NCBI GenBank assembly: GCA_043769075.1
Contig: JAYVJS010000551.1
Coordinates: 1 to 42,932 of the forward strand
Direction of reading: 5' to 3'
From: Gemmatimonadota bacterium
GTDB taxonomy: Bacteria > Gemmatimonadota > Gemmatimonadetes > Gemmatimonadales > GWC2-71-9
Length of the DNA stretch: 42,932 nt
Below, in pieces: positions 1-21,326 of the stretch; positions within the stretch are counted from its first letter, which is position 1, and each line of letters opens with the position of its first letter. The notes under the pieces are model-generated. The model did no database searches, was not told the origin of the DNA, and worked only from the letters and a program-made list of their open reading frames with translations. The position numbers and the translations under genes are program-made.

Positions 1-968
1 CGGCGCTCGGCACTCGGCACTCGGTATATGGAGGGGATTTGTTTGGGGAGGTGGAGCGGTTTGCGGAGCTGGCGGGGGAGATTGCGGCGCGGGAGCCGCA
101 TGACGTGATCGACGCGCACGACTGGATCGGGTTTCGGGCCGGGCTTCGGGCGCGGGAGGTTTCGGGCCGGCCGTTGGTGGCCCACATCCACGCGATCGAG
201 TTTGACCGGACCGGCGGGGACGGAGACCCGGAGATCGCCCGGCGGGAACGGAGCGGGTTGATGAGCGCCGACCGGGTCGTCAGCAATAGCTACCGGCTCC
301 GAGATCTTTGTGTGGAACGCTATCAGGTTCCGGCTCACAAATTCGATGTGGTGCACTGGGGTCTGGAGGGAGACTCGGGCGGAGCGGGGGCGGAGATCGG
401 GACGAGTCCGCTCGGGCCCACGACGCCGGTCGTCTTGTTTCTTGGCCGGGTAACCAGCCAGAAGGGGCCTGACTACTTCCTCGAGATGGCCGCCAAAACC
501 GCTCGGTACGTACCCCGGGCCCACTTCATCGTCGCCGGCAACGGCGACATGCTCCCGTATCTGATCGACCGCGCGGCCGAGTTAGGGATTGCCGATCGGG
601 TTCACTTCGCGGGCGGGATCGGACGGCCGGACTTGGAGCGAGTCTACCGAATGGCCGACGTGTGCGTGATGCCCTCTCGAAGCGAACCGTTCGGCTTGGT
701 GGCCCTCGAGAGCCTGTTGAGCGGGACGCCGTGTATTGTCCCGAAGAATGCCGGGGTATCCGAAGTGATTCAAAACGCCTTCAAAATCGATTCCTGGGAT
801 GTCGACGCGATGACTGACCGGGTCGTCGCGATCCTCAAGTATCCGGGCCTCCGCGCCGAACTGAGCGAGCGGGGCCGCCACGAGGTGTCATTGCCACGGT
901 TTGGACTCGAAGAGCCGGCCCGACTGACTGCTCAATCCTATCTCCATGCGATCGCGATGAGAGCCTAA
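1..968 (+). CDS. Glycosyltransferase family 4 (GT-B, glycogen-synthase-like), 5' end cut by window edge
   Basis: Frame 3 is open from nt 3, with no stop before the listed TTG at 39, so the gene begins upstream of the window. The C-terminal GT-B donor-binding region (VMPSRSEPFGLVALESLLSGTPCIVPKNAGVSEV) was recognised by eye. The TAA stop at 966-968 lies 1 nt before the next ATG. Confidence 0.8.
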   Translation, partial: ALGTRHSVYGGDLFGEVERFAELAGEIAAREPHDVIDAHDWIGFRAGLRAREVSGRPLVAHIHAIEFDRTGGDGDPEIARRERSGLMSADRVVSNSYRLRDLCVERYQVPAHKFDVVHWGLEGDSGGAGAEIGTSPLGPTTPVVLFLGRVTSQKGPDYFLEMAAKTARYVPRAHFIVAGNGDMLPYLIDRAAELGIADRVHFAGGIGRPDLERVYRMADVCVMPSRSEPFGLVALESLLSGTPCIVPKNAGVSEVIQNAFKIDSWDVDAMTDRVVAILKYPGLRAELSERGRHEVSLPRFGLEEPARLTAQSYLHAIAMRA

Positions 969-969
969 C

Positions 970-2163
970 ATGCCCGACATTTGTCTCTACGCCCAGGTGC
1001 ACCAACCATTCCGGCTTCGGCGTTACCGGCTGTTCGACATCGGAACCGGGCTCGACTACTTCGACGAGGAGGCCAACGCCGGCATTCTCCGGCGGGTGGC
1101 AGAGAAGTGTTACCTCCCCGCCAACCGGCTCTTGGCCCAGCTGATTCGCCGCTCCGAGGGCCGCTTCAAGCTGGCCTTGAGCCTGAGCGGAACCTTGATC
1201 GAGCAGTTGACGCTCTATGCGCCCGATACGCTGGCCACTTTCCAGGATCTGGTTGATACCGGCGGGGTCGAAATCCTCGGCGAGACCTACTATCACAGCT
1301 TGGCCGGGCTCGCCGACCGAGAGGAGTTTGTCGAGCAAGTCGCCCGGCACCGGAAGTTGATCGAGCGAACCTTTGCCCGGCGGCCCTTCATCTTTCGGAA
1401 TACCGAGCTGATCTACTGGGATGACTTGGCTCCAACGGTCCTTGGGATGGGGTTCCGCGGCATGTTGGTCGAAGGAGCCGATCATGTCTTGGCCGGCCGG
1501 TCACCGAACCAGGTCTACGCCGCGGCGACGGCCCCCGCGCTCCGGCTCATGCCCCGCAACTACCAACTGAGCGACGACGTCGGCTTCCGGTTCTCCCAGC
1601 GCTCGTGGAGCGGGTGGCCACTGACCGCCCCGAAGTACGCCGACTGGCTGAGCCGGAACCAGGGGGAGTCGCTCAACCTTTTTCTCGATTACGAGACCTT
1701 CGGCGAGCATCAGTGGGCCGAGACCGGGATCTTCGACTTCTTGAGCCACTGGCCCGACGAGTGCTTCCAACGGGGCCTCCGTTTCGTGCAGCCGTCCGAG
1801 CTGGCCCGTCGCACACCCACCGGCCCACTGAGTTTCCCCCGCCCCACCTCGTGGGCCGATCAGGAGCGCGACACCTCGGCTTGGCTCGGCAACCATATCC
1901 AGGACTCGGCCCACGACCGTCTGTATCGCCTTGGCCGGGCCCTCCGCGAGCTCGGGGACGCGGCGTTGCTCGAACAGTGGCGGCGGTTGACCACCAGCGA
2001 CCATGTCTATTACATGTGCACCAAGTGGTTTGCCGACGGCGACGTCCACAAATACTTCAGCCCCTACGACTCGCCCTATGACGCCTTCGTCGCGTTCATG
2101 AACGTGCTGGAGGATCTCGAGCAGCGGGCGGCGGCCGACTCGTCTATGCTTGTCGGACGATGA
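970..2163 (+). CDS. Glycoside hydrolase family 57 protein (alpha-glucan acting)
   Basis: 397-aa ORF. The N-terminus ICLYAQVHQPFRLRRY...YFDEEANAGILRRVAEKCYLPAN and the DYETFGEH segment look like GH57. The ATG at 970 is packed against the GT4 stop, and the stop overlaps the next start (ATGA at 2160-2163). Confidence 0.85.
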   Translation: MPDICLYAQVHQPFRLRRYRLFDIGTGLDYFDEEANAGILRRVAEKCYLPANRLLAQLIRRSEGRFKLALSLSGTLIEQLTLYAPDTLATFQDLVDTGGVEILGETYYHSLAGLADREEFVEQVARHRKLIERTFARRPFIFRNTELIYWDDLAPTVLGMGFRGMLVEGADHVLAGRSPNQVYAAATAPALRLMPRNYQLSDDVGFRFSQRSWSGWPLTAPKYADWLSRNQGESLNLFLDYETFGEHQWAETGIFDFLSHWPDECFQRGLRFVQPSELARRTPTGPLSFPRPTSWADQERDTSAWLGNHIQDSAHDRLYRLGRALRELGDAALLEQWRRLTTSDHVYYMCTKWFADGDVHKYFSPYDSPYDAFVAFMNVLEDLEQRAAADSSMLVGR

Positions 2164-2723
2164 CCGCCGCAGCCGACATGTTCGAGGCGCTTTTGATGCC
2201 GTTGTTGGGGAGTGCCTACAGCACCGCCCTTCGGTTGACCCGAAATCCGGCCGACGCGGAAGACGTCGTGCAGGAGGCGGCCCTCCTGGCTTCCCGGGGC
2301 TTCCACTCGTTCCAAACCGGCACCAATTTCAAGGCATGGTTTTTCCGGATCCTCACTAACGCCTACTTCAGCAAGTATCGGCAGCAACGACGCCGGGGGC
2401 ATTCGGTGCCGTTGGAGGACACGCCAGAGCTTTATCTGTTTAGCCAAGCCGCGGCACTCGGATTGCATGGCCAATCAGCCGATCCCGCCGGCGACCTGGT
2501 CGGCAGACTCGACGCCGAGCAGGTCATCGGTGCGTTGGACAGCCTACCGGAGGAGTATCGGGTGGTGGCGACACTGTACTTCGTGAACGACCTCAGTTAC
2601 GAGGCTATCGCGAGTTCGCTCGAGATTCCGATCGGGACTGTGCGCTCTCGCCTTCACCGAGGCCGGCGGATGCTCCAGCGTGCCTTGTGGCGGCTGGCCC
2701 AAGACCACGGCATCAGCCAATGA
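2160..2723 (+). CDS. ECF-type RNA polymerase sigma-70 family factor
   Basis: 187 aa. Region 2 (DAEDVVQEAALLA...FKAWFFRILTNAYF) and region 4 HTH (LPEEYRVVATLYFVNDLSYEAIASSLEIPIGTVRSRLHRGRRML) are present, with no region 3. ATGA overlaps link it to GH57 upstream and the anti-sigma gene downstream. Confidence 0.9.
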   Translation: MTAAADMFEALLMPLLGSAYSTALRLTRNPADAEDVVQEAALLASRGFHSFQTGTNFKAWFFRILTNAYFSKYRQQRRRGHSVPLEDTPELYLFSQAAALGLHGQSADPAGDLVGRLDAEQVIGALDSLPEEYRVVATLYFVNDLSYEAIASSLEIPIGTVRSRLHRGRRMLQRALWRLAQDHGISQ

Positions 2724-2977
2724 CCGAACCGCATCGATTTACCTGCGACGACGTCTTCCGGCGACTCGACGATTATCTCGACCGGGAGCTGTCCGCGGCC
2801 GAGATGCAGTTGGTGGCCGAGCACCTCGACACCTGCGCCCAATGTGCGGCGGAGCATCGGTTCGAAGCCCGGGTCATCGACTCGATCAAGGCCAAGCTGA
2901 GCCAGATCAAGGCGCCTGACCTCCTCCTCAAGCGAGTGGCGAAGGCGCTCGAACAGGAGCGAAACAAGACCGGCTAG
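2720..2977 (+). CDS. Short cytoplasmic ZAS-type (RsrA-like) anti-sigma factor, no TM segment
   Basis: 85 aa counted from ATG 2720, which overlaps the sigma TGA at 2721-2723. H-x3-C-x2-C motif (EHLDTCAQC) plus an upstream Cys9. The C9/H35/C39/C42 spacing equals the C11/H37/C41/C44 spacing of Streptomyces RsrA as I remember it. The listed GTG at 2687 is a less likely start, because the paralog at 15211 begins MTxxHRxTC just like the ATG-2720 form. Confidence 0.8.
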   Translation: MTEPHRFTCDDVFRRLDDYLDRELSAAEMQLVAEHLDTCAQCAAEHRFEARVIDSIKAKLSQIKAPDLLLKRVAKALEQERNKTG

Positions 2978-3041: not shown

Positions 3042-5729
3042 GTGTCGCAAGCCCGACGTACCGCCGAATCTGATCGCCTTGCCGCCATCGAACACCACGT
3101 CCCGTGGCGCCGGTGGGGGCCGTATCTTTCGGAGCGCCAGTGGGGCACGGTCCGGGAGGACTATAGCGACAATGGCGCGGCCTGGGACTACTTCCCCCAC
3201 GATCATGCCCGCAGTCGCGTCTATCGGTGGGGCGAGGACGGCCTCGGCGGATATTCCGATCACCTCCAGCGCCTTTGCGTCGGCGTGGCTCTCTGGAATG
3301 GCCGCGACCCGATCCTAAAAGAGCGCCTGTTCGGGCTGACCAACGGCCAGGGGAATCATGGCGAAGACGTCAAGGAGTTGTACTACTACCTCGACGCCAC
3401 CCCGACCCATTCGTACCTCCGGATGCTCTACAAGTACCCCCAAGGCGAGTTTCCCTACCAGCAGTTGATCGGGGAGAACCAGCGGCGAGGCCCCAACGAC
3501 CCGGAATTCGAGCTCCTCGATACCGGACTGTTCGACCAGGACCGGTACTTCGACGTCTCAATAGAGTATGCCAAGGCCGGCCCCACCGACACCCTGCTCC
3601 GGGTGACGGTGGTCAATCGGGGCCCCGAGGCTGCCCCGATCCATGTCCTCCCCCAAGCCTGGTTTCGAAACACCTGGAGTTGGGGCCGGGAGCCCGGCCG
3701 CCCCGTCATGCGGGCCTCCTCGGCCGCCGCCGTGACGGCCGATCATCCGTCGTTAGGCACCACGCATTTGTACTTTGACGGCGGTCCTGAGCTGCTGTTT
3801 GCTGAGAACGAGACCAACACGGCGCTGCTCTACGGCACCCAGGGCCCCGGCCGCGCGGTCAAGGACGGGTTCCACGAGCGGGTGGTTCGAGGTCGGACCG
3901 ACGCAGTCAACGCCGATCGGATCGGGACAAAGGCCGCGGCCTGGTACCAGACGGTGATCGCGGCAGGCGGGACGGCGGTTTTTCAGGCCAGACTGTCCGC
4001 CGAGCCGATCGCGAAGCCGTTCGCCGGTTTCGACGGGATCTTCGAGGCCCGCCTTACCGAGGCCGACGAGTTCTATGCCGACATCCAGCGCGGGATGGAC
4101 GACCCCGATGCCCGGATGGTCCAACGGCAAGCATTCGCCGGGATGATTTGGAGCAAGCAGCTTTACTACTACGATGTCCCCGAGTGGCTCGAGGGCGATC
4201 CAGGCCAACCCACCCCGCCGACGGCCCGCCGGTCGGGCCGAAACCATGACTGGGAACACCTCAACAACGCCGACCTTCTCTCGATGCCCGACGCCTGGGA
4301 GTATCCCTGGTTTGCCGCGTGGGACCTCGCCTTCCACTGCATTCCGCTGGCGCTGATCGATCCTGAGTTTGCCAAGCACCAACTCGTCTTATTGACGCGC
4401 GAGTGGTACATGCACCCGAACGGCCAGCTCCCCGCGTATGAGTGGGCCTTTGGGGACGTCAACCCGCCGGTCCACGCGTGGGCCGCGTGGCGAGTATTCC
4501 AGCTCGACCGAAAGAAGACCGGCAAAGAGGACATCGCGTTCCTCGAGCGAGTGTTCCACAAGTTGATGCTCAACTTCACCTGGTGGGTGAATCGCAAGGA
4601 CGCCCAGGGCCGGAACGTGTTCCAAGGCGGATTCCTCGGCCTCGACAACATCGGAGTGTTCGACCGGGGCGCACCGCTGCCTGGGGGCGGGTTCTTGAAT
4701 CAGGCCGACGGCACCGCCTGGATGGCGATGTATTCGCTCAACCTGATGCGGATCGCCCTCGAATTGGCGATGCACAACCGGGTCTACGAGGACATTGCGA
4801 CCAAGTTCTTCGAGCACTTCCTCCATATCGCCGAGGCCATGACCAAGATCGGCGGCGACGCCGCGGGATTGTGGAACGAAGAAGACCAGTTCTACTACGA
4901 CGTGCTCAACACCGACGACGACCGTCAGATTCCGCTCAAGATTCGTTCGATGGTCGGGCTGATTCCGCTGTTCGCCGTCGAGACGATCGACCAGAGCATG
5001 CTCGATGCCCTCCCGGAGTTTGCCGGACGGCTCAAATGGTTCCTCGACAACCGGCCCAAACTGGCCGCTCTGGTGGCCAAGTGGGACGTACCCGGCCACG
5101 GCGAACGGCGCCTCCTATCGCTGGTGCCCGGCCGACGGATCGGCCCGATCCTCGAACGGCTCCTTGACGAAACCGAGTTCCTGTCGGACTACGGTGTCCG
5201 CGCGGTGTCCCAGTTTCACCGTGATCATCCCTATCAACTCGAGGTCGGCGGCCAGAGTCTCTCCGTTCGCTATCAGCCGGGAGAGTCCGACTCGGGGTTG
5301 TTCGGGGGAAACTCGAATTGGCGGGGCCCGATTTGGATGCCGGTGAACTACCTCTTGATCGAGTCGCTCCAGCGATTCCATTACTACTATCACGACCAGC
5401 TGATGGTGGAGTGCCCGAAGGGATCGGGCCGTCAGGTCACGATCGACCAGGCGGCCGCGGAGATCTCGCAACGGTTAACCCGGCTCTTTCTCAAAGACGG
5501 AGCCGGACGGCGCCCGGTCCTCGGGTACCATCCCAAGCTTCAGAACGATCCCCATTTCCGCGACCACGTCCTGTTCCACGAGTACTTCCATGGCGAGACC
5601 GGCCGAGGCGTCGGGGCCTCGCATCAGACCGGATGGACCGGCTTGGTCGCCAAACTGTTGATGCCCCGCCCGGTCCATCAGGCCCGGGGCACCGACGATT
5701 ACCATCACCACACCAAGGTGGCCCTATGA
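3042..5729 (+). CDS. GH63 / MGH1-like glucosidase (about 890 aa bacterial type)
   Basis: 895-aa ORF. The N-terminal WRRWGPYLSERQWGTVREDYSDNGAAWDYFPHDHARSRVYRWGEDGL and the later (alpha/alpha)6-type segments are typical of bacterial GH63 'glucosidase' proteins. GGGAG lies 7 nt upstream of GTG 3042. Confidence 0.85.
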   Translation: MSQARRTAESDRLAAIEHHVPWRRWGPYLSERQWGTVREDYSDNGAAWDYFPHDHARSRVYRWGEDGLGGYSDHLQRLCVGVALWNGRDPILKERLFGLTNGQGNHGEDVKELYYYLDATPTHSYLRMLYKYPQGEFPYQQLIGENQRRGPNDPEFELLDTGLFDQDRYFDVSIEYAKAGPTDTLLRVTVVNRGPEAAPIHVLPQAWFRNTWSWGREPGRPVMRASSAAAVTADHPSLGTTHLYFDGGPELLFAENETNTALLYGTQGPGRAVKDGFHERVVRGRTDAVNADRIGTKAAAWYQTVIAAGGTAVFQARLSAEPIAKPFAGFDGIFEARLTEADEFYADIQRGMDDPDARMVQRQAFAGMIWSKQLYYYDVPEWLEGDPGQPTPPTARRSGRNHDWEHLNNADLLSMPDAWEYPWFAAWDLAFHCIPLALIDPEFAKHQLVLLTREWYMHPNGQLPAYEWAFGDVNPPVHAWAAWRVFQLDRKKTGKEDIAFLERVFHKLMLNFTWWVNRKDAQGRNVFQGGFLGLDNIGVFDRGAPLPGGGFLNQADGTAWMAMYSLNLMRIALELAMHNRVYEDIATKFFEHFLHIAEAMTKIGGDAAGLWNEEDQFYYDVLNTDDDRQIPLKIRSMVGLIPLFAVETIDQSMLDALPEFAGRLKWFLDNRPKLAALVAKWDVPGHGERRLLSLVPGRRIGPILERLLDETEFLSDYGVRAVSQFHRDHPYQLEVGGQSLSVRYQPGESDSGLFGGNSNWRGPIWMPVNYLLIESLQRFHYYYHDQLMVECPKGSGRQVTIDQAAAEISQRLTRLFLKDGAGRRPVLGYHPKLQNDPHFRDHVLFHEYFHGETGRGVGASHQTGWTGLVAKLLMPRPVHQARGTDDYHHHTKVAL

Positions 5730-6583
5730 CCGCTGCAACCGCTCGGACGGCGAACTCACCTTTCATGGAACGACCGATGGCCAAGCTTCTTAGCGGCCAG
5801 AAGGTGCTCGTCACCGGTGCTAGTTCCGGGATCGGAAAATCGATTGCGATGGCCATGGCCTCGGCCGGAGCCGACGTCTGCGTCAACTACCCCGTGGAAG
5901 CCGAGATGGCCAAGGCTATCGAGGAAGTCGAAGACATCCGGGCCCACGGCGGCCGTGCCTGGGCCCACCAATGCGATGTGTCGAATGAAGCCGAGGTCAT
6001 CGCGATGTTCGACCGGATTCGGAAAGAGATGGGGACGGTGGACATCGTGGTGGCGAATGCCGGAATCCAGCGCGACGCCCGGTTTGAGGACATGACCCTG
6101 GACCAATGGAACCGGGTCATCGGCGTCAACTTGACCGGGCAATTTTTGTGCGCCCGCGAGGCCGTCAAGGAGTTCAAGCGGCGGGGATTTCACTCCGTGT
6201 CCCGGTCGTTGGGCAAAATCATTTGCATGAGTTCGGTTCACGAGGTCATTCCCTGGGCCGGCCACGTCAACTACGCCACGTCGAAGGGTGGCGTGATGTT
6301 GATGATGAAGAGCATTGCGCAAGAAGTGGCCCCCGCGGGGATTCGGGTCATGAGCATCGCGCCCGGGGCGATTCGGACCCCGATCAACCGCGACGCCTGG
6401 GAAACCCCGGAGGCCTATCAGAGTCTCCTCAAGCTGATTCCGGCCAAGCGGATCGGCGAGCCTGAGGATATTGCTCGGACGGCGGTGTGGCTGGCGTCGG
6501 ACGAAGCCGACTACATCACTGGAACGACGACGTTCGTGGACGGCGGGATGACGCTTTATCCCGGGTTCGAAGCCGGCGGCTGA
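5726..6583 (+). CDS. Glucose 1-dehydrogenase-like short-chain dehydrogenase (SDR)
   Basis: TGASSGIGKS Rossmann motif. MSSVHEVIPWAGHVNYATSKGG...PGAIRTPIN and the C-terminus DGGMTLYPGFEAGG closely resemble Bacillus glucose 1-dehydrogenase as I remember it. ATG 5726 overlaps the GH63 TGA (ATGA). An alternative start at 5777 (MAKLLSGQKVLVTG) fits homolog N-termini better. Confidence 0.8.
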   Translation: MTAATARTANSPFMERPMAKLLSGQKVLVTGASSGIGKSIAMAMASAGADVCVNYPVEAEMAKAIEEVEDIRAHGGRAWAHQCDVSNEAEVIAMFDRIRKEMGTVDIVVANAGIQRDARFEDMTLDQWNRVIGVNLTGQFLCAREAVKEFKRRGFHSVSRSLGKIICMSSVHEVIPWAGHVNYATSKGGVMLMMKSIAQEVAPAGIRVMSIAPGAIRTPINRDAWETPEAYQSLLKLIPAKRIGEPEDIARTAVWLASDEADYITGTTTFVDGGMTLYPGFEAGG

Positions 6584-12209: not shown

Positions 12210-14345
12210 TCAGTGTGTCTCCTCGCCGGGCCGGTAGGCTCGTTCCAGGTTCCGCTTGATCTCGTCCAGGGAAAACCAGGTCGGCTTGAACTGGCCCTTG
12301 GCGAACAGCGGGGCCTGGTCGAAGAAGTGTTTCGACGCGGGGTCGCCGCTTTGGCCAAAGGGGGTGATCGAAAGCGACCGGACCTTCGGTCCGAACTCGA
12401 CCACCGCGACTTACGCGGAACCATTGACGGCATACCGCCGCTTCATGCCGGCCGGTTGCTGGGTGCCGATCGAGAAAATCGTCCCGACCAGCCCGCCATC
12501 TGTCGAAGGCAACCCGAGACTCGGCTGGTCGTCGCGGTACGATGCTCCGTCCCGCTCCCGCGGACGTTGGAGGCGCTGGTACTCGCCGATCGGCACCTCG
12601 GCTGTGCCGAAGTCATTGATCAACCCGGCCCGAACCGCCTCGAGCGCGGCTACCCGAAACCACGTCGTGGTATCGGCTCGGGCTGCGCGAGGGCCGGCCG
12701 TTCGTTGGTACAAGGCGAACCACAGCGCGGGGACCGATTCGACTCGCCCGTACCGGTCCCAACCGCCCAGTCCGGTCACCATTGAACGAACGACCTCGGC
12801 CCGGGCGGGATCGACCGCGACCAACTGCTGCCACTCATGGATGAGCAGCGGCACCTCGCGTTCGGCGGCGTAGAAGTAGGTGTCAAACGCCATGGCCGCC
12901 CACTGGTCGAAGGTGAACTTGCCGGCTTGGGTCAGCAATCGTCGAGACGCCCGAGCCCGCCAGTTGTCCGGGTGCAAGGCGAGGTAGCGCGGGTAGTCCT
13001 TCCGTTTCGGGTTGGCGTCTGCGGTCGTGGTGAGGAACGGCGTCGAGTTGGTGTTCTGCATCCATCCGGCAGGCGGGTTCAGCACCTGGGGCATCTCGGC
13101 CGGCGTGTGGTACCCCTGCCAGTCGGTTCGCGGGTTGGTGCCGTCGACCGGCTTCGACCAATCGAATGTGGTGTCTCGCTTTGGCACCGCTCCGGCGTGA
13201 CTGAAGAAGATGTTGCCGGCGGTATCGGCGTACATCACGTTGTGGTAGGTCAGGCCGTTGATGTCGAGCGCCTGCCGGAACTCGGCGAGGTTCCGGGCTT
13301 TACCCATCGCGTACCATTGCTGGAACAGGCCGCCGTGGTCGACATTGCCGAAATTGACCGCTAATTGCTTTCCGCCGCGCTCACCGAGGATCGGCCCGTG
13401 GTGGGTTTTCCGGAGGGAGACGATCCGGGTTTCGAAACCGGCCGCCGTCTTGACCCGGAGCGAGTCGCGCCATTCGACGGCCAAACGGTGCCCCTCGCCG
13501 TACCGGTACGCGAGGGGACGGGCCGGATCATCGAAGACCTCTTCCCAGATGTCAGCCATGTCCGAATTGTTGACCGTCAGAGCCCAGCCCAGATGTTCGT
13601 TGTGGCCTTTCACGGGGATAGCCGTTTGTGCATAGGCCGTCAGACCGCTCAGGTTCCACCCCTCGTCGCTGATCCAGTGGCTCTCATACACCGGCAACAG
13701 CGGTGTATGGGGATTCACAAAGAGCATCGGATACCCCGAGGCGCTCTTGGCGGCGCTGACCGCCCACATGTTCGAACCCTCACCCGCGGGTCGAGCAGCC
13801 GGCAGCACGATCTTGGCCAACGACCGCAAGTTGACGTCGACGGCCTCCGGCGAAATCGCAAAGGAGCGGTACATGGTGAATAGCATCCAGCCCTGATAGC
13901 GGATCGGTACCCTGGGGGTGATCTCCGGGTGTTTGAGCAGGAAGTAATTGGTGCCGTCGGCCCAGGCATCGGCCAGCGCCCGGATGGCTGGAGTGGCCCC
14001 GGCGTATTCCTCTTTGCCGAGTCGTTCGAACTCGAACGCTCGGAAGAACACATCCCAGCCCACTCCATCTTCACCGCTCAACTCGGCCTGGCGCCCGAGC
14101 GCCTGGAGGTAGGCGGCCTCGGTTTCCTGGAACCGGTCCTCCGACCGGGCGTACGCCATCCCGAACATCACGTCGGCGTCGGTCTTTCCTTGGACGTGCG
14201 GCACCCCGTACGTATCGCGATAGATGGTCACCATCTTCGCCCGTTGCTGCCAGCGGCCTCGCTCTGCCGAATTTGACTGCGCCCTTTGGGCCGCCAATGG
14301 CAAGGCGCACCCGAGGAAGGCGATCAACGCGAACGACGGCCTCAT
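12210..14345 (-). pseudogene. Penicillin acylase / Ntn-hydrolase S45 family gene (AHL-acylase-like) interrupted by an in-frame TAA
   Basis: ORF 12411-14345 (644 aa) carries a signal peptide, YRDTYGVPHV, and the GSNMWAV beta-subunit Ser nucleophile site. ORF 12210-12404, in the same frame, encodes the family's C-terminal [19 protein letters not shown] motif. The two are separated only by TAA (12411-13) plus two sense codons. Confidence 0.8.
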
Positions 14346-15106
14346 CAGTGACTCAACCGCGGGACGTCCGCGCCCTCCGGGATCCCGGCGGCCGAGACCT
14401 GGTCGAGGTACAGTTCACCGAGGTAACTGGGCGTTCCGACCACCAGCGACAGCTCCGGTGTCGCGACGATCGTGGTACCCCCCAGCAGGAGACCGTCCAC
14501 CAAGGCGCCGGCCAGCCCGACCGAGCGGAGAAACGCAAAGGTCAAGTCGGCGTCCCGAAGGTCCGCTCCCGACAGACCGGTTGCCGCCAATACCGCACTG
14601 GTCAAGGAAGCCCCCCGTAGATCGGCGCCCCGCAGGACGGCATGCGACAAGATAGCTTCGCGGAGGTCGGCTCCGACGAAGCGCACGCCGGGCAAGTTGA
14701 CCTGGCCGAAATGAGCGTTAGGCAGCTTGGCGTCGGCGAACGAAGGCGGTGCCCCGGCCAGATAGCTCATCCGAAAGGTGGCCCGGGTCGCATCGGCGTG
14801 GTCGAACCGGGCCCCGGTCAGGTTGGCGCCGAGAATCTTGGCCCCAACCAGATTGGCACCGCGGCAGTCCGCGTCGGTCAGGTCACAGCCGGCGAGGTCG
14901 GCTCCGGCGAGCCGAGCATCGGCCAAGGATGTGCCCCGGAGATCGGAGCCGGCCAGGTCGGCGTTGGTGAGGTCGGCCCCAGCCAAGTCCAGGCCCGCCA
15001 GCTTGCCGTACCGGAGTGGGGCGCCAGCCAGATGAGCGCCTAGCAGGGTGGCCGCCGGGACCCGAACCAGGACGGCGCCGGTTTCGCGATGGAGGATCTC
15101 AATCAT
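14345..15106 (-). CDS. Pentapeptide-repeat protein
   Basis: 253 aa from ATG 15106 (MIEILHRETGAVLV...). It has long runs of A(D/N)LxG-type pentapeptides (LAGADLTNADLAGSDLRGTSLADARLAGADLAGCDL...). Its TGA shares one nt with the acylase ATG at 14345. Confidence 0.85.
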   Translation of the reverse strand: MIEILHRETGAVLVRVPAATLLGAHLAGAPLRYGKLAGLDLAGADLTNADLAGSDLRGTSLADARLAGADLAGCDLTDADCRGANLVGAKILGANLTGARFDHADATRATFRMSYLAGAPPSFADAKLPNAHFGQVNLPGVRFVGADLREAILSHAVLRGADLRGASLTSAVLAATGLSGADLRDADLTFAFLRSVGLAGALVDGLLLGGTTIVATPELSLVVGTPSYLGELYLDQVSAAGIPEGADVPRLSH

Positions 15107-15136
15107 CCCCCAAACTAGCGCTGGACCCACCCTCCG

Positions 15137-15162
15137 GGAACTTGAGCGGGCGGTGGGGCGTT
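15137..15162 (+). promoter_or_regulatory. Putative ECF-type promoter P2 (GGAAC-N17-CGTT) upstream of the ZAS paralog / debranching enzyme / aquaporin unit
   Basis: GGAAC at 15137-15141, a 17-nt spacer and CGTT at 15159-15162. It lies 49 nt upstream of ATG 15211, in the divergent intergenic region. Confidence 0.5.
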
Positions 15163-15210
15163 GGTCCCCCTAGGTTGGAGGCAGGCCGTTTAACGGAAAC
15201 CAAGAGGAAC

Positions 15211-15480
15211 ATGACCACGGGCCACCGAGTGACCTGCGAAGACATGATTCGCGAGCTGCCCGACTTCCTCGATCGTGAATTGCCCACGATCCGGCTGGCC
15301 GAGTTGCAGGAGCACCTTGACGAATGCGCCCGTTGCCTTCGAAAGCACCAGTTCGAGGCCTCGGTCTTGGACCAGATTCGGAGCCGCCTGACCAACATCG
15401 GACTCCCCCCGTCACTCCAAACCCGGATCCTCGAGTTGCTCAGCACGGATCGAGCTGGAGGGACGCCATGGAGATACTGA
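15211..15480 (+). CDS. Second short ZAS-type (RsrA-like) anti-sigma paralog, no adjacent sigma gene
   Basis: 89 aa from ATG 15211, with AGAGGA just upstream. MTTGHRVTCEDMIRELPDFLDRELP...EHLDECARC has C9/H35/C39/C42 at the same positions as the 2720 gene. My hand alignment gives about 35 identities in the first 77 positions. Confidence 0.75.
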   Translation: MTTGHRVTCEDMIRELPDFLDRELPTIRLAELQEHLDECARCLRKHQFEASVLDQIRSRLTNIGLPPSLQTRILELLSTDRAGGTPWRY

Positions 15481-17441
15481 CGGCCGATCGCTCCGCTGAG
15501 TGGCTGGAGGCCGATGGGCTCGGGGCCTATGCCAGCGGCACCGTGGCCGGGCCCCGGTCGCGGCGTTACCACGCCTTGCTGATGACAGCCACGACACCTC
15601 CGACCGGACGGCAGGCCCTGGTGGCGGGGATCGATGCCTGGGTCGAGTCCGCAAACGATCGCGAAGACCTCACCGTCCAGCGGTATCGCCCGGACTTCGA
15701 CAGCCGGTTGCCGGACCACGTCACCCGTTTTTCCAACGACCCGTGGCCGACTTGGAACTACCGGCTCCTCGACGAAACCGAGATCGAGCACGAGATCTTT
15801 GTTCCCAAAGATCGATCCATGGTGGTGCTCCGGTGGCGATTGGTCCGGCCCGTTCCGGGAAAGCGGCTGATGGTCCGACCCCTGCTGACCGGGCGAGACA
15901 TCCATGCCCTCCATCATGAGAACAGCGAACTGCGGTTCGACGCCGAAGTCGGGGCTGACCGGGTTCGTTGGCAGGCGTATAGTGCCCTGCCAGGCGTCAT
16001 CGCCGGTCACAATGGGGCATATCACCACGGCCCGACCTGGTACCGCGGGTTCCAACTCGATGAAGAGCGGGCCCGGGGGTTCGACTATTTGGAAGACGCG
16101 GCCTCGCCCGGGGTGTTGAGCTGGGATCTTTCCGCCGGCGAGGCGGTGCTGATCCTGGCCACCGACTCGGCCGACAACGCTGATGACTTGGTGCTGCCGC
16201 CGCTCAAGGCCGCGGACCGACACCGGAAGCGGGAGCGGCTCCGACGGGGCCGGTTGACGAGTCCATTGGCCAAGGCGGCCGACAGCTACATCGTGAGGCG
16301 CGGTTCGGGCAAGACCATTATCGCAGGGTATCCCTGGTTCACCGACTGGGGACGGGACACCTTCATTGCCGTCCGCGGACTCGGGCTCGCTACCGGCCGC
16401 CTGGACGATGCCAAGGCCATCATCTTGGCCTGGGCGGATACCGTTTCCGAAGGCATGCTCCCCAATCGGTTCGTCGACCAGGGCGACGCGCCGGAATACA
16501 ACTCGGTCGATGCCTCGCTCTGGTATGTGATGGTCGTGGGTGAGTTGATCGCGGCGTTCGCCGAAACCGGGAAACGCCTAACGGCGACGGACCGGCGGCG
16601 GATGGGCGATGCGGCCCAGGCCATCCTGGAGGGGTACGCCAAAGGAACTCGCTACGGCATCCACGCCGACACCGACGGCCTCCTCGCCGCCGGGGTCCCC
16701 GGTGTTCAACTCACCTGGATGGACGCGAAGCTCGGCGACTGGGTGGTGACGCCCCGGATCGGGAAACCGGTTGAGATCCAGGCGCTCTGGCTGGCGGCGC
16801 TTGCGGCCGGCAGTGCTCGTGATGACCGGTGGCGGGCACTCTCGGATCGGGTTCGGGCCACGTTCGCCAAGCGGTTTTGGAATCCGGATCGGGCCTGTTT
16901 GTACGACGTGGTCGATTGCGACGGCGTGGCTGGGCGGGTCGACGCCTCGGTTCGGCCGAACCAGATCTTTGCCGTCGGTGGCCTGCCGCAGTCGTTGCTG
17001 AGCGGCGCGATGGCGACGGCGGTGGTCGAAACGGTCGAACGGGAGCTTCTGACGCCACTCGGCCTGAGGACCCTCGCGCCCACCGATCCGGCGTACGTTC
17101 CCCGATACCAAGGCGGCCCTCATGAGCGCGATGGCGCCTACCATCAAGGCACCGTCTGGCCCTGGCTGCTCGGACCCTTCGTCGAAGCCTGGCTCCGGGT
17201 TCGGGGCAACACCGCCACGACCCGGCGCGAAGGGCAGACCCGGTTCCTGGCGCCGCTGATGGCGCACCTGAACGAAGCGGGCCTCGGACACATGTCGGAG
17301 ATTGCCGATGCCGAGGCGCCCCACGTTCCCCGCGGGTGCCCCTTTCAAGCCTGGTCGGTCGGGGAGGCGATTCGGATCCACCACCTGCTCGCCGAGCCCG
17401 TGGCGCCGGCACCGAAGCGACGACGACTACCGGCCCCGTGA
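15468..17441 (+). CDS. Glycogen debranching enzyme (GDE N-terminal domain + amylo-alpha-1,6-glucosidase domain)
   Basis: 657 aa from ATG 15468, a 13-nt overlap with the ZAS paralog. EWLEADGLGAYASGTVAGPRSRRYHALL, GYPWFTDWGRDTFIA, NSVDASLWY, LTWMDAK, VEIQALW, YHQGTVWPWL and QAWSVGE are typical of the bacterial/archaeal GDE family. Confidence 0.85.
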   Translation: MEILTADRSAEWLEADGLGAYASGTVAGPRSRRYHALLMTATTPPTGRQALVAGIDAWVESANDREDLTVQRYRPDFDSRLPDHVTRFSNDPWPTWNYRLLDETEIEHEIFVPKDRSMVVLRWRLVRPVPGKRLMVRPLLTGRDIHALHHENSELRFDAEVGADRVRWQAYSALPGVIAGHNGAYHHGPTWYRGFQLDEERARGFDYLEDAASPGVLSWDLSAGEAVLILATDSADNADDLVLPPLKAADRHRKRERLRRGRLTSPLAKAADSYIVRRGSGKTIIAGYPWFTDWGRDTFIAVRGLGLATGRLDDAKAIILAWADTVSEGMLPNRFVDQGDAPEYNSVDASLWYVMVVGELIAAFAETGKRLTATDRRRMGDAAQAILEGYAKGTRYGIHADTDGLLAAGVPGVQLTWMDAKLGDWVVTPRIGKPVEIQALWLAALAAGSARDDRWRALSDRVRATFAKRFWNPDRACLYDVVDCDGVAGRVDASVRPNQIFAVGGLPQSLLSGAMATAVVETVERELLTPLGLRTLAPTDPAYVPRYQGGPHERDGAYHQGTVWPWLLGPFVEAWLRVRGNTATTRREGQTRFLAPLMAHLNEAGLGHMSEIADAEAPHVPRGCPFQAWSVGEAIRIHHLLAEPVAPAPKRRRLPAP

Positions 17442-18196
17442 AGCCGAATTGGGTCGAGTACGGGCTCGAGACGTTCGGGCTCGGGCTCTTCATGGTTTCG
17501 GCCTCGGCGTTCGGGGTCCTGCTGTTCCACCCGGACTCGCAGGTGGTGACGGTGCTGCCGAACCCGATGGTCCGGAGCGCTCTGATGGGCCTCGCGATGG
17601 GATCGACCGCGCTACTAAACACCTACTCGCCCTGGGGCCGCCGCTCCGGGGCCCACCTCAACCCCGCCGTCACTCTCACGTTCTACTCGTTAGGAAAGGT
17701 GTCGGCGGTGGACCTAGCCGGCTATGTCGCCGCGCAGTTCGTTGGCGGGCTGCTCGGGATGATGGTGGCCGCCGCGATGTTGTCGCCGTGGATTGGGCAT
17801 CCGGCGGTCAACTTCGTGGCCACCGTGCCGGGGCCGGCCGGCCTTGGAGCGGCCTGGCTCGGCGAGGCGGTCATCACCGTTGTGTTGATGACCGTGGTGC
17901 TTACCTGTGCCGCTAACCCCAAGACGGCACCGTTTACCGGATTCGCCGCGGCCGGCCTGGTGGCCGTCTACATCACGTTCGAGGCGCCGCTCTCGGGCAT
18001 GAGCATGAATCCGGCCCGCACGCTGGCCTCCGCCGTTCCAGCGATGTCGTGGCACGGGCTTTGGATCTACTTCACCGCCCCACCCCTCGGCATGTTGGCC
18101 GCGGCCGCGTTCCGCCGCCGTCACCACGCCCGCCACTGCGCCAAACTCCACCACGATGCTCGCTTTCGCTGCATTTTCTGCGGGAACTCGCCCTAG
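17438..18196 (+). CDS. MIP/aquaporin family channel with Cys/His-rich C-terminal tail
   Basis: 252 aa from GTG 17438, which overlaps the GDE TGA (GTGA). It has two NPA boxes (HLNPAVT, SMNPART) and six hydrophobic segments. The tail reads RRRHHARHCAKLHHDARFRCIFCGNSP. Confidence 0.9.
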   Translation: MKPNWVEYGLETFGLGLFMVSASAFGVLLFHPDSQVVTVLPNPMVRSALMGLAMGSTALLNTYSPWGRRSGAHLNPAVTLTFYSLGKVSAVDLAGYVAAQFVGGLLGMMVAAAMLSPWIGHPAVNFVATVPGPAGLGAAWLGEAVITVVLMTVVLTCAANPKTAPFTGFAAAGLVAVYITFEAPLSGMSMNPARTLASAVPAMSWHGLWIYFTAPPLGMLAAAAFRRRHHARHCAKLHHDARFRCIFCGNSP

Positions 18197-18293: not shown

Positions 18294-18665
18294 ATGCGTA
18301 CCTGGCTCATCACGTCGTTCGCCGCCCTGGCGGTACTCGCCACCGCAGCCTTCCGGCCCGCCCCGACCACCAAGGTCAGCAAGCCGTTTGCCGGCGCCAA
18401 GGTCAACGGCGGCAACGTCACCATGAACAACGACGGCGGCAAGATCACCTTGACGCTCTCGCCCGAGGTCAAGGATCCGAAGACCCCCGACGCCCACTGG
18501 CAAGTCGTCGATGCCAAGGGCCGGGTCTATCTCCTCGACAAGATGACGATCAAGGACGACAAGGTGAATCAGTCGATCACCTTGCCCGACTACATCAAGG
18601 ACGTCCAGAAGGTCGTGATCTTCTGCGCCTGGGCCGTGGCCAACCTCGGCGAAGCCTCGTTCTAA
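18294..18665 (+). CDS. Secreted DM13-domain-like protein
   Basis: 123 aa from ATG 18294, with AGAGGAG 7 nt upstream. Signal peptide MRTWLITSFAALAVLATAAF. The body, ending VVIFCAWAVANLGEASF, resembles bacterial DM13 (electron-transfer) domain proteins. Confidence 0.6.
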   Translation: MRTWLITSFAALAVLATAAFRPAPTTKVSKPFAGAKVNGGNVTMNNDGGKITLTLSPEVKDPKTPDAHWQVVDAKGRVYLLDKMTIKDDKVNQSITLPDYIKDVQKVVIFCAWAVANLGEASF

Positions 18666-18805
18666 CGACCGACAGTCGACGGAGCTCCCCATACGGGGCT
18701 TGGCCGGCGGGTAGTCGAATCGACCTGGCGCGAACAATAGGCTGCCATCATTCGACGACCCTGCCGGCCCGACTGATTCCCCCACCGTCAGGAGACCGGA
18801 TCGTC

Positions 18806-19666
18806 ATGACCATCAGGACCATGCTGGCGAGCGCGTTGGTGATCGCCCTTCCGGCCGTCGCGCTCGAAGCTCAAGTCACCGCCAAGAAGCAACTCAACAT
18901 GGACGGCGCCAAGCAGATCGCGGACGCCGTCGTCGCGGAAGCCAAGCGCCTCAATACCACCGGCGTCGTCGCGGTCGTCGACGACGGCGGCAACCTGATG
19001 TACCTCGAACGAGTCGACGGCTCGTTCGCCGCCGGGGCCTTGATTTCCTACGGGAAGGCCCGAACCGCCGCCCTCTTCATGCGGCCGACCTCGGTGTTCG
19101 AGAATCTGATCAAGAGCGGCCGGACCCCGATGATCGCGCTCAATGACTTCACGCCGCTCCAAGGTGGCATTCCGGTCGAAGTCGATGGCCACATTGTCGG
19201 GGCTGTCGGAGTCAGCGGAGCCGCGAGCGCCGCCCAGGACGAGGAGCTCGCGATGGTCGGCGCTAAAGCGCTGGCTGACATGAAGCAGGCCCTGGCCCCG
19301 GTCAGCGTTTTCCCCAAGATGGAGGTCGACGCCGGGTTCGCGAAGGGCGGGGTCCTCATCGGCGACCTGCCTGATCGCGGCTATCAAGTTCACACCAGTC
19401 GGCGGAACGAGCCCGGGATGGTCGAAGTCCACACCCTCGACACTGACGTGTTCCAGGTGCTCTCCGGTTCGGCAACCCTGGTCACTGGCGGCACCATGGT
19501 GGGCGGCAAAGAGACCGGACCGAACGAATGGCGCGGCACCGAGATCCAGGGCGGAGAGAGCCGGAAGATCGCCAAAGGCGACGTGGTCGTCATCCCGGCC
19601 GGAACACCCCACTGGTTCAAGGCGATCGACGGACCGGTCACCTACTTCGCCGTCAAGGCCCGGTAG
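18806..19666 (+). CDS. Secreted GlcG/HbpS-like (DUF336) domain fused to a cupin domain
   Basis: 286 aa from ATG 18806, with AGGAGA upstream. Signal peptide MTIRTMLASALVIALPAVALEAQ. The DUF336 region reads LNMDGAKQIADAVVAEAKRLN...VAVVDDGGNLMYLERVDG...GGIPVEVDGHIVGAVGVSGA. The C-terminal cupin-like strands read GDVVVIPAGTPHWF. Confidence 0.75.
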   Translation: MTIRTMLASALVIALPAVALEAQVTAKKQLNMDGAKQIADAVVAEAKRLNTTGVVAVVDDGGNLMYLERVDGSFAAGALISYGKARTAALFMRPTSVFENLIKSGRTPMIALNDFTPLQGGIPVEVDGHIVGAVGVSGAASAAQDEELAMVGAKALADMKQALAPVSVFPKMEVDAGFAKGGVLIGDLPDRGYQVHTSRRNEPGMVEVHTLDTDVFQVLSGSATLVTGGTMVGGKETGPNEWRGTEIQGGESRKIAKGDVVVIPAGTPHWFKAIDGPVTYFAVKAR

Positions 19667-19670
19667 CTCG

Positions 19671-21326
19671 ATGCGGCGCCCGACCTTGATCTCACTCGTG
19701 CTCACGGCCCTCGGCGCGTCGGCCGCCTCGGCCCAGGTTACCGCCGATGCCCCAGCCGGCCGACCCCAGGCCATCGTCGACTTGATGACGACCGACGGCG
19801 TCCGCTCGGTCAACGGAGTGTGGAAATACCGTGACGCCCAAATCATCGAGGTCGACCATCGGAGCCCCGGGCCCGACCTCCGGCCTTCCGGCCCCCCCAA
19901 CCGAACCCATGACATTGTTCTGAAGGCCGGCGTCGCCGGGTTCGACGACACCGACTGGGAGACCGTTGACGGCCCCGACCTGACCAAACGGCGAACCAAC
20001 GGCCGGCTGGCTTTCGGCTGGTACCGGCTCAACCTGACGATCCCCGAGCAGGTCGGATCGTTCTCGACTCGCGGCTCGACGGTGGTCTTCGAGATCGTGG
20101 TCGATGACTATTCCGAGATCTGGGTCGACGGGAAGCTCACGCCGGTCCTCGGGCAGACCGGCGGCCAGCTGATCAAAGGCTGGAACGCGCCCAATCGCGT
20201 GGTGATCGGACGACACGTCGAACCGGGCCAGCGAATCCAGCTCGCCGTGTTCGGGATCAACGGGCCGCTCTCCGACCCGCCGATCAACTTCGTCTGGGTT
20301 CGTTCCGCCACGCTCGACTTTTATCAGGAGCCTAGCGGCGGGGTCGTGGCGACGGCCGCCACGATCGTTCGCCATGATCCCGCACTCGACCGGATCGTCC
20401 CGAGCGGAGCGGCCCTCGAGAAACTCGCCGGGGGCTTTTCATTCCTCGAAGGTCCGGTTTGGGTTCCCGAAGGCGGATTCCTGCTCTTCAGCGATCCAAA
20501 CACCAACACCATCTACCGGTGGACACCGGATGGGCAGGTCTCGGTGTGGCGGACCAAAAGCGGCTTTGCCGGCCCTAACATCGGCGACTACAAGCAACCG
20601 GGCTCCAACGGCCTCGCGCTCGACGCGATGGGACGAGTCACCATCGACCAACACGGCAACCGTCGGGTAATTCGGGTGGAACGCAACGGCGTCGTGACGG
20701 TCTTGGCGGACGGGTATCAAGGGAAGCGGCTCAACAGTCCCAACGATCTGGTCTACAAGTCGGACGGGTCGCTCTACTTCACCGACCCACCGTTCGGGTT
20801 GCCAAAGGTCTTCAGCGATCCGGCCAAGGAAACACCCTTCTCGGGTGTCTACCGGTGGAAGGACGGTGAAGTCACCCTGCTGACGACCGATTTCACCGGC
20901 CCTAACGGAATCGCGTTCTCCCCGGACGAGAAGTACCTCTACGTCGACAACTGGGACCCCGCGAAAAAGGTGATCATGCGCTACCCGGTCAAAGCCGACG
21001 GGACCCTCGAGAAGGGCACCGTATTCTTCGACATCACCACCTCGGTTCCCGGCGACGACGCCTGGGATGGCCTCAAGGTCGATACCAACGGGAACGTCTA
21101 CGCGGCCGGCCCCGAGGGCGTTTACGTCCTTGACCCCGCCGGGAAGCACCTCGGCACCATCGTGCTGCCCGAGCACGTGGCCAACTTCGCTTGGGGCGAC
21201 GATGATTTCCGGACCCTCTACCTCACCGCCTCGACCGGATTGTACCGGATTCGGCTGGCCGCCCAGGGCACCGGCGCTTTCAGCCGCCTCGCGGCCCGGG
21301 AACCCACGGCCACCTCGAGGCATTGA
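19671..21326 (+). CDS. Secreted SMP-30/gluconolactonase/LRE-family beta-propeller with an N-terminal extension of about 230 aa
   Basis: 551 aa with signal peptide MRRPTLISLVLTALGASAASAQ. The C-terminal half (FLEGPVWVPEGGFLLFSDPNTNTIYRW...NGLALD...PNDLVYKSDGSLYFTDP...PNGIAFSPDEKYLYV...GLKVDTNGNVY...NFAWGDDDFRTLYLTA) is the gluconolactonase pattern. I did not recognise the family of the N-terminal beta-rich domain. Confidence 0.8.
   Translation: MRRPTLISLVLTALGASAASAQVTADAPAGRPQAIVDLMTTDGVRSVNGVWKYRDAQIIEVDHRSPGPDLRPSGPPNRTHDIVLKAGVAGFDDTDWETVDGPDLTKRRTNGRLAFGWYRLNLTIPEQVGSFSTRGSTVVFEIVVDDYSEIWVDGKLTPVLGQTGGQLIKGWNAPNRVVIGRHVEPGQRIQLAVFGINGPLSDPPINFVWVRSATLDFYQEPSGGVVATAATIVRHDPALDRIVPSGAALEKLAGGFSFLEGPVWVPEGGFLLFSDPNTNTIYRWTPDGQVSVWRTKSGFAGPNIGDYKQPGSNGLALDAMGRVTIDQHGNRRVIRVERNGVVTVLADGYQGKRLNSPNDLVYKSDGSLYFTDPPFGLPKVFSDPAKETPFSGVYRWKDGEVTLLTTDFTGPNGIAFSPDEKYLYVDNWDPAKKVIMRYPVKADGTLEKGTVFFDITTSVPGDDAWDGLKVDTNGNVYAAGPEGVYVLDPAGKHLGTIVLPEHVANFAWGDDDFRTLYLTASTGLYRIRLAAQGTGAFSRLAAREPTATSRH
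21299..21324 (+). promoter_or_regulatory. One-mismatch copy of the ECF-type motif (GGAAC-N17-CATT), weak candidate P4
   Basis: GGAAC at 21299-21303, a 17-nt spacer and CATT at 21321-21324, overlapping the lactonase stop. It shares the cgGGAAC flank with P2 and P3, and lies 9 nt upstream of ATG 21333. Confidence 0.25.

Follow-up and report, generated by a model that had tools for sequence, protein, structure and literature searches.

The 42,932-nucleotide stretch of contig JAYVJS010000551.1 that was analysed here at its full length (referred to below as the window; assembly GCA_043769075.1, Gemmatimonadota bacterium, GWC2-71-9) encodes two small zinc-binding anti-sigma factors (ZAS). One of them, ZAS1, is linked to a gene for an extracytoplasmic function (ECF) sigma factor (sigma1), and the other, ZAS2, stands before the genes of a glycogen debranching enzyme (GDE) and a channel of the MIP family (Table 1). 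We consider it likely that ZAS2 is a functional, soluble class-I (RsrA-type) anti-sigma factor that is encoded at the head of an operon under ECF control, ZAS2-GDE-MIP, and exerts negative feedback. A stress-sigma promoter of one and the same type precedes this operon and the other parts of a surrounding glycogen cluster, and the placement of the operon therefore suggests a built-in feedback on the sigma factor, or factors, driving that cluster; besides sigma1, these may include a second paralog, sigma2, encoded on the contig that adjoins the window (C546). The assembly is a metagenome-assembled genome (MAG) of 84 % completeness, and the contigs of relatives used for comparison all stem from MAGs of soil Gemmatimonadota. 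As MAG completeness ranges from 73 to 98 %, calls of absence are weakened throughout.

ZAS2 comprises 89 residues (MTTGHRVTCEDM...TPWRY), has no hydrophobic stretch of transmembrane length and is preceded by a ribosome-binding site (AAGAGGAA, 15202–15209). It aligns with ZAS1 without gaps (BLASTP, 36/81 identities, 44 %, E 8e-26), close to the approximately 35 identities in 77 residues that had been counted by hand in the initial annotation of the window; the size, the missing membrane segment and the ligand positions given there were likewise borne out by open reading frame (ORF) analysis and alignment. Both proteins contain exactly three cysteines, C9, C39, and C42, which together with H35 occupy identical positions and reproduce the RsrA spacing C-x25-H-x3-C-x2-C (C11, H37, C41, and C44 in RsrA). 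Across 26 aligned ZAS1 and ZAS2 sequences, H35, C39, and C42 are invariant, and the complete set of four ligands is kept in every full-length member. Residue C9, again 25 residues before the histidine, aligns with C11 of RsrA, the partner of C44 in the trigger disulfide (PMC3177212). The zf-HC2 profile of Pfam (PF13490) is matched with 34.6 bits, above its gathering cutoff of 22.2, and the closest solved relative is RsrA of Streptomyces coelicolor (5FRF, E 4e-7), aligned over residues 5–84 and thus full length. Sigma contacts of RsrA involve L50, A53, V54, L57, V75, and L79 (PMC4960319), four of which (L50, V54, V75, and L79) correspond to the hydrophobic residues F48, V52, I73, and L77 of ZAS2; A53 is replaced by S51 and L57 by the polar Q55, which sits beside the hydrophobic I56. 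These features support ZAS2 as a genuine, selected RsrA-like paralog, and we infer that it binds both zinc and a sigma factor. No ZAS of this type other than ZAS1 and ZAS2 was found in the assembly. Longer forms of ZAS2, starting from GTG at 15016 or TTG at 15175, were rejected, because the alignment of the orthologues begins with the ATG of 15211 and a longer frame would take in the promoter.

The arrangement is not peculiar to this genome. In 41 related genomes there are 14 GDE orthologues (at least 59 % identity), and 12 of these are immediately preceded by a ZAS gene in the same orientation. Of the remaining two, G008:C4 is without a ZAS, and in G020:C677 the gene next upstream of GDE is that of a GH63 glycoside hydrolase. 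The same order recurs in five further metagenome contigs, and in six related loci sigma1-ZAS1 is located 4–5 kb upstream of ZAS2 on the same strand. A maximum-likelihood tree groups the 11 ZAS2 sequences from the genus in one clade (support 93/98) and the 12 sigma-linked ZAS1 sequences in another (94/87); it did not resolve how these are related to the single ZAS that other genera possess. The two clades are also told apart by their signatures, RELPxFLDRE...C(A/E)RCLRK in ZAS2 and RRLDDYLDRELS...CxQCAxE in ZAS1. Directly before and overlapping GDE, the ZAS2 clade is limited to the genus of the window and one further genus (G023), and it must be rare, since a word-indexed protein search of a large database returned only 9 close relatives.

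In pairs with unsaturated dS, the dN/dS amounts to 0.2–0.5 for ZAS2 and to 0.02–0.13 for ZAS1. The four closest pairs of ZAS2 have values of 0.49, 0.21, 0.31, and 0.28, as compared to 0.13, 0.10, 0.075, and 0.30 in the matching pairs of ZAS1. Selection on ZAS2 is thus purifying but more relaxed than on ZAS1. The higher ratios and the identity among orthologues, which is as low as 38–40 %, could be read as signs of a decaying or neutral duplicate that is merely carried as a passenger before GDE. However, the frame is intact in all loci (12 or more), the zinc ligands are present in every full-length sequence, dN/dS stays below 0.5 in pairs with unsaturated dS, the clade spans the genus, and both the promoter and the overlap with GDE are conserved. 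We regard this explanation as very improbable and already largely refuted. The initial annotation had named a linkage unique to this genome and neutral evolution as findings that would speak against its proposal, and had called for a survey of relatives; the survey instead revealed a conserved linkage under purifying selection.

The GDE start codon (ATG, 15468) lies upstream of the ZAS2 stop (TGA, 15478–15480), which gives the 13-nt overlap reported initially, and a GGAGGG sequence is found at 15457–15462, 5 nt before the GDE start. Of 12 loci examined, at least 11 show an overlap of the ZAS2 stop with the GDE start, in the form of ATGA, GTGA, or 8–13 nt, and such an overlap also occurs in the metagenome contigs L061–L065. 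Translational coupling probably fixes the ratio of ZAS2 to GDE. Coupling of this kind often marks interacting proteins, and ZAS2 could accordingly be seen as an anti-sigma factor no more, but as a small zinc or redox partner of GDE (a redox-regulatory subunit, chaperone, or tether), or else as a decoy that titrates the activating signal rather than a sigma factor. Its faster evolution relative to ZAS1, the divergence of its signature RELPxFLDRE from RRLDDYLDRE in ZAS1, and the lack of an adjacent sigma gene would fit such a role. On the other hand, four of the six hydrophobic sigma-contact positions and the RsrA alignment over the whole length of the anti-sigma domain are retained, ZAS2 is the only ZAS for a sigma factor whose promoters all remain in G003 and G023, and the GDE of other genera manages without ZAS2. 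To our knowledge, no ZAS has a demonstrated enzyme partner, and we judge a loss of the anti-sigma function to be quite improbable. A variant that combines both roles is a long shot: ZAS2 might be an enzyme-coupled anti-sigma factor, made in a fixed ratio with GDE and bound by it, in which case the state of GDE (substrate-bound or on the glycogen granule) would set the level of free ZAS2. If true, the size or branching state of the glycogen store, along with the cytoplasmic thiol redox state, would feed directly into sigma availability, an input that is not known for any ZAS/ECF system.

Transcription of the operon is predicted to depend on a sigma factor of the SigH/SigR type. When the regions upstream of 11 ZAS2 orthologues are aligned, a single element stands out as conserved, CGGGAAC-N17-CGTT(G), found in 10 of 11 as aligned; in the eleventh (G003), a direct scan located an N=17 copy approximately 130 nt upstream of ZAS2, giving 11 of 11. 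In the window it corresponds to P2, which had been recognized as an ECF-type motif from the outset and from which transcription is predicted to start at about 15169–15172. The sequence from P2 to the end of the MIP gene yielded neither a sigma70-like promoter nor an intrinsic terminator. A scan of all related loci placed the motif at five fixed positions of the cluster, with N=17 in every case: before the glycosyltransferase (GT) gene that shares an operon with sigma1-ZAS1, before the gene for an LtrA-like membrane protein preceding sigma2, in the gap between ZAS1 and GH63, before ZAS2, and before the gene of a small secreted protein. Within 327 kb of cluster loci, N=17 accounts for 54 matches vs. 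1–4 for each other spacing from N=12 to N=22. The consensus, cGGGAACC-N15-gGCGTT, agrees in sequence and spacing with published SigR/SigH promoters (PMC3489674), combining a −35 element of the GGAA(C/T) type with a −10 element of the form (C/G)GTT. Since the only conserved upstream element is a SigH/SigR-type promoter that recurs at five positions, including that of the sigma1-ZAS1 operon, ZAS2 is very probably a regulon-encoded anti-sigma factor. Given the close resemblance of sigma1 and sigma2 in regions 2 and 4, both should read this motif.

Outside of the cluster, the motif is also located before a gene for isocitrate lyase and before two paralogous genes for Tat-signal NAD-epimerase-like proteins (contigs C8 −11131, C67 −6517, and C283 −2862), which are possible further members of the regulon. 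Thioredoxin-type genes, as known from RsrA-type thiol-stress regulons, were not seen behind the motif in the 84 %-complete assembly. Three copies of sigma1-ZAS1 that reside outside of the glycogen cluster (L058 in G007:C24, L059 in G009:C439, and L060 in G002:C218) have no N=17 motif within approximately 5 kb, and autoregulation through the motif may thus be specific to the copies embedded in the cluster.

Taken together, the ZAS2-GDE-MIP operon would belong to a small regulon over the glycogen/alpha-glucan cluster, with each unit behind the same SigH/SigR-type promoter. A SigH-like sigma factor (sigma1 and/or sigma2), once freed, would transcribe the glycogen genes along with new ZAS2; reduced, zinc-loaded ZAS2 would then re-capture the sigma factor and end the response. 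The coupling of an anti-sigma factor to the translation of an output enzyme would render this negative feedback proportional to output. A second, sigma-induced anti-sigma factor in a split feedback loop had been proposed initially. This remains a natural reading insofar as a motif of the P2 type also precedes the sigma1-ZAS1 operon, but sigma2 had not entered the picture; as sigma2 is the sole cluster sigma factor in some of the relatives with ZAS2-GDE, the loop is not simply one of sigma1 with two anti-sigma factors.

Sigma2 (52 % identical to sigma1) is flanked by genes for an LtrA-family membrane protein and a sigma-54-dependent activator, with no anti-sigma gene adjoining, and the sigma2 clade, including the copy of G023, is nested among the cluster sigma factors on a long stem (support 100/98). 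Its pairing with the sigma-54 activator was seen in 8 relatives. In G004 and G016, a copy of the ECF motif lies ahead of the activator gene as well. An alternative is that ZAS2 is the cognate anti-sigma factor of the orphan sigma2 only, with sigma1 held by ZAS1 alone and no split feedback on sigma1. An ancestral sigma-ZAS module would have been duplicated and the second pair separated, with sigma2 relocated to the left flank of the cluster and ZAS2 placed first in the GDE operon. Both lack an adjoining partner gene, and both are derived clades on long stems. Moreover, the clusters of G003 (C226 and C15), G023, and G007 (C16), which read GT-GH57-P-GH63-P-ZAS2-GDE-MIP-P-secreted protein (P denoting the promoter motif), contain no sigma1-ZAS1 and hold only sigma2 and ZAS2 with all promoter motifs retained. 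In G003 and G007, sigma2 neighbors GT, and in G023 it lies close to a sigma-54 activator on another contig; sigma2 is the sole sigma factor of the clade in G003 and G023, and G007 has sigma1-ZAS1 at a separate locus with no motif nearby. Conversely, G013, G015, and G018 (96 % complete) have sigma1-ZAS1 and an intact, selected ZAS2-GDE without sigma2, and in G013:C4 other genes fill the flank past the LtrA-like gene where sigma2 would stand. In G017 (97 % complete), sigma2 and the sigma-54 activator occur without the cluster and without any RsrA-like ZAS, and sigma2 therefore does not need ZAS2. The similarity of the two sigma factors in regions 2 and 4 also makes cross-binding plausible. Overall, we think an exclusive pairing of ZAS2 with sigma2 unlikely, albeit worth keeping in mind.

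All four components are present in G000, G012, G004, and G016. No genome with ZAS2 lacks both sigma factors, and neither of the two is present throughout; co-occurrence with sigma1 (8/10 genomes) and sigma2 (7/10) does not discriminate between the partners. Because some relatives carry only sigma2 and ZAS2 and others only sigma1-ZAS1 and ZAS2, the simplest reading is that ZAS2 can probably act on either sigma paralog.

The two anti-sigma factors also differ in residues that are linked to redox sensitivity. In RsrA, E39, E40, L45, and E46 set the sensitivity to diamide, which is reduced 7.7-fold in the L45A and 4.8-fold in the E40A variant, and an acidic pair before C41 together with L plus R/E after C44 was proposed as the mark of a sensitive ZAS (Jung et al. 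2011, PMC3177212). ZAS2 conforms to this pattern (H-L-D-E-C-A-R-C-L-R-K, with D37-E38-C39 and C42-L43-R44) and ZAS1 does not (H-L-D-T-C-A-Q-C-A-A-E). The residue after the second cysteine is A in all ZAS1 of the genus and A or S in the aligned ZAS of three outgroup genera; L is found in this position in 9 of 12 ZAS2 orthologues. As ZAS2, and not ZAS1, carries the sensitivity residues of the RsrA type, the two proteins probably differ in the signal or the threshold that releases the sigma factor. The earlier idea that ZAS2 provides a second redox threshold thereby gains indirect support from the residue pattern.

Several observations weigh against ZAS2 as an RsrA-type feedback regulator of this cluster. 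Its score with the RsrA equivalog profile of NCBIfam (TIGR03988) is 49.7 bits (ZAS1, 47.9), below the cutoff of 62.5, and it evolves approximately 3 times faster than ZAS1. The full redox-determinant pattern is present in only 7 of 12 ZAS2 orthologues. As had been stated initially, no sigma gene adjoins ZAS2: sigma1 is located 12.5 kb upstream, no sigma gene lies within 12 kb, and the neighbors are the divergent pentapeptide-repeat gene and GDE, a departure from the usual pairing of sigma and anti-sigma genes. The AlphaFold2 (AF2) monomer model, built on the 26-sequence alignment, has three helices and moderate confidence (pLDDT 69, pTM 0.43), and a Foldseek search of this model against the PDB gave no match with an E value better than 8; such poor fold matching might be expectable for an anti-sigma domain without its partner. 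The sigma2 of G017, which stands without a ZAS, belongs here as well. Finally, GGAAC-N17-CGTT occurs 36 times in the assembly as a whole, where N=17 is not enriched relative to other spacings; a regulon signal emerges only within the cluster and from cross-genome comparison.

The closest known systems are the thiol-stress modules of the ECF12 type, RsrA-SigR of S. coelicolor and RshA-SigH of Mycobacterium and Corynebacterium. They share with the present case a small soluble ZAS with C-x25-H-x3-C-x2-C and flanking D-E...L-R, a full-length alignment of ZAS2 with RsrA, a promoter of the form GGGAAC(C)-16 nt-CGTT(G), and a sigma factor of the same kind, as the closest solved structure to sigma1 is SigH of M. 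tuberculosis (5ZX2, E 1.3e-38) and sigma1 is also close to region 2 of SigR. Unlike these modules, the present one belongs to Gemmatimonadota and not Actinobacteria, ZAS2 falls short of the TIGR03988 cutoff, its gene is unlinked to any sigma gene and translationally coupled to GDE, ZAS and sigma factor each have two paralogs, and the regulon, as far as visible, consists of a glycogen cluster, with no thioredoxin-type genes seen behind the motif. An anti-sigma gene behind a promoter of its own sigma factor has a precedent in rshA of C. glutamicum, whose SigH-dependent promoter was proposed to shut the response down (PMC3489674); in the case of ZAS2, the likeness is suggested by the motif. A second, unlinked anti-sigma factor is likewise known: RpoE2 of Sinorhizobium meliloti, an EcfG-type sigma factor of the general stress response, has two paralogous anti-sigma factors, RsiA1 linked to the sigma gene and RsiA2 as an unlinked orphan (PMC6180224). 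However, these are of the NepR class and controlled by a PhyR-like anti-anti-sigma factor (partner switching) instead of zinc and redox, and RsiA2 shows no coupling to a gene for an enzyme. New here are a diverged ZAS paralog that is unlinked to a sigma gene and coupled to GDE, the glycogen regulon, the set of two sigma factors and two ZAS, and the host phylum. Our literature searches retrieved no description of an ECF/ZAS system of Gemmatimonadota that is coupled to genes of glycogen metabolism.

A redox module of the SigH/RsrA type, best known from Actinobacteria, appears in uncultured soil Gemmatimonadota, where it seems to be devoted to storage-glucan metabolism and not to thiol repair. 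The system hints at redox or stress control of glycogen turnover in these drought-exposed bacteria. With two sigma factors, two anti-sigma factors, and five promoters of one type, the network is compact, and relatives that naturally lack one part or another make it suitable for the study of insulation and cross-talk.

The presence of a ZAS gene among carbohydrate genes had initially been regarded as unusual. Within this Gemmatimonadota family it is not, as the glycogen cluster of many genera contains a sigma-ZAS pair. Genera of the family other than that of the window share the order GT-GH57-sigma-ZAS-(pentapeptide-repeat protein)-P-GH63-GDE-MIP with GGAAC-N17-CGTT (L045–L050), but mostly have a single ZAS beside the sigma gene and GH63 directly before GDE. 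Extra ZAS copies in or near the cluster are also carried by other genera independently. For example, G181:C102 (L045; 16257–16502, minus strand) has an additional orphan ZAS directly before P-GH63-GDE-MIP, G137:C128 has two ZAS matches close together, downstream of the sigma gene and 3 kb upstream of GDE, and in G155:C60 two matches approximately 1 kb apart are found on a contig that also bears GDE.

Table 1. Features of the glycogen cluster in the window and on the adjoining contig C546.
Feature	Position	Strand	Remarks
GT4/GT5 glycosyltransferase, C-terminal part (glycogen-synthase-like)	3..968	+	Synteny in L031, L023, L061
GH57 glycoside hydrolase	970..2163	+	Pfam E 3.7e-69; stop overlaps sigma1 start
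sigma1, SigH/SigR-like ECF sigma factor	2160..2723	+	Pfam and NCBIfam matches
ZAS1, sigma-linked ZAS	2720..2977	+	85 aa; directly after sigma1
P1, same motif as P2	2977..3002	+	Between ZAS1 and GH63; position kept in L022–L027, L031
GH63/MGH1-like glycoside hydrolase	3042..5729	+	
Short-chain dehydrogenase (SDR)	5726..6583	+	Start overlaps GH63 stop here and in L061/L062
Pentapeptide-repeat protein	14345..15130	−	Pfam E 5e-37; divergent from ZAS2; same neighbor in most relatives of the genus
P2, ECF (SigH/SigR-type) promoter motif GGGAAC-N17-CGTT	15136..15162	+	Exact motif; approximately 50 nt before ZAS2 ATG
ZAS2, RsrA-like ZAS paralog (zf-HC2)	15211..15480	+	89 aa, predicted cytoplasmic; C9/H35/C39/C42
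GDE (GDE_N + GDE_C)	15468..17441	+	Pfam E 2.6e-110 and 5e-51
MIP-family channel (aquaporin/glycerol facilitator)	17336..18196	+	Pfam MIP E 7e-25; after GDE in relatives too (synteny)
P3, same motif as P2	18182..18208	+	Before small secreted protein gene; position kept in L024, L026, L028, L029, L030, L043, L044
Small secreted protein	18294..18665	+	123 aa; signal-peptide-like N-terminus; follows MIP in most relatives examined (tblastn synteny)
sigma2, SigH-like ECF sigma factor	C546:13122-13727	−	201 aa; 52 % identical to sigma1

To derive the canonical layout of the cluster in the genus, related loci were mapped by tblastn and genes were called on additional metagenome contigs. Leftward units comprise the sigma-54 activator, sigma2, and the LtrA-like membrane protein, and later the pentapeptide-repeat protein; rightward units are GT-GH57-sigma1-ZAS1, GH63-SDR, and, after the pentapeptide-repeat gene, ZAS2-GDE-MIP followed by the small secreted protein. 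In the case of the organism studied here, this layout extends over two contigs. The first ORF of the window represents the C-terminal two-thirds of GT, whose N-terminus is encoded at the end of C546 (15134–15411) beside two divergent GGAAC-N17-CGTT motifs. C546 abuts the start of the window, as indicated by synteny in G012:C92 and G013:C4, and approximately 100 bp seem to be missing between the two. The true start of the MIP gene is uncertain, as the longest ORF runs into the end of GDE, and the small secreted protein has no Pfam match at E ≤ 1e-3.

Between 5730 and 14345, the window differs from its relatives: GH63-SDR and the pentapeptide-repeat gene are separated by an insertion of approximately 6.7 kb of unrelated genes together with a gene of the penicillin-amidase family. 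The ORF of the latter encodes 644 residues as compared to 714 in G013 and may be truncated. The SDR gene follows GH63 also in L061–L066. Downstream of the small secreted protein, genes for a fusion of an HbpS-like (DUF336) domain with a cupin and for an SMP-30/gluconolactonase-like protein were observed (18800–19666 and 19671–21326), which together with the SDR after GH63 hint at a glucose-oxidizing branch attached to the glucan cluster.

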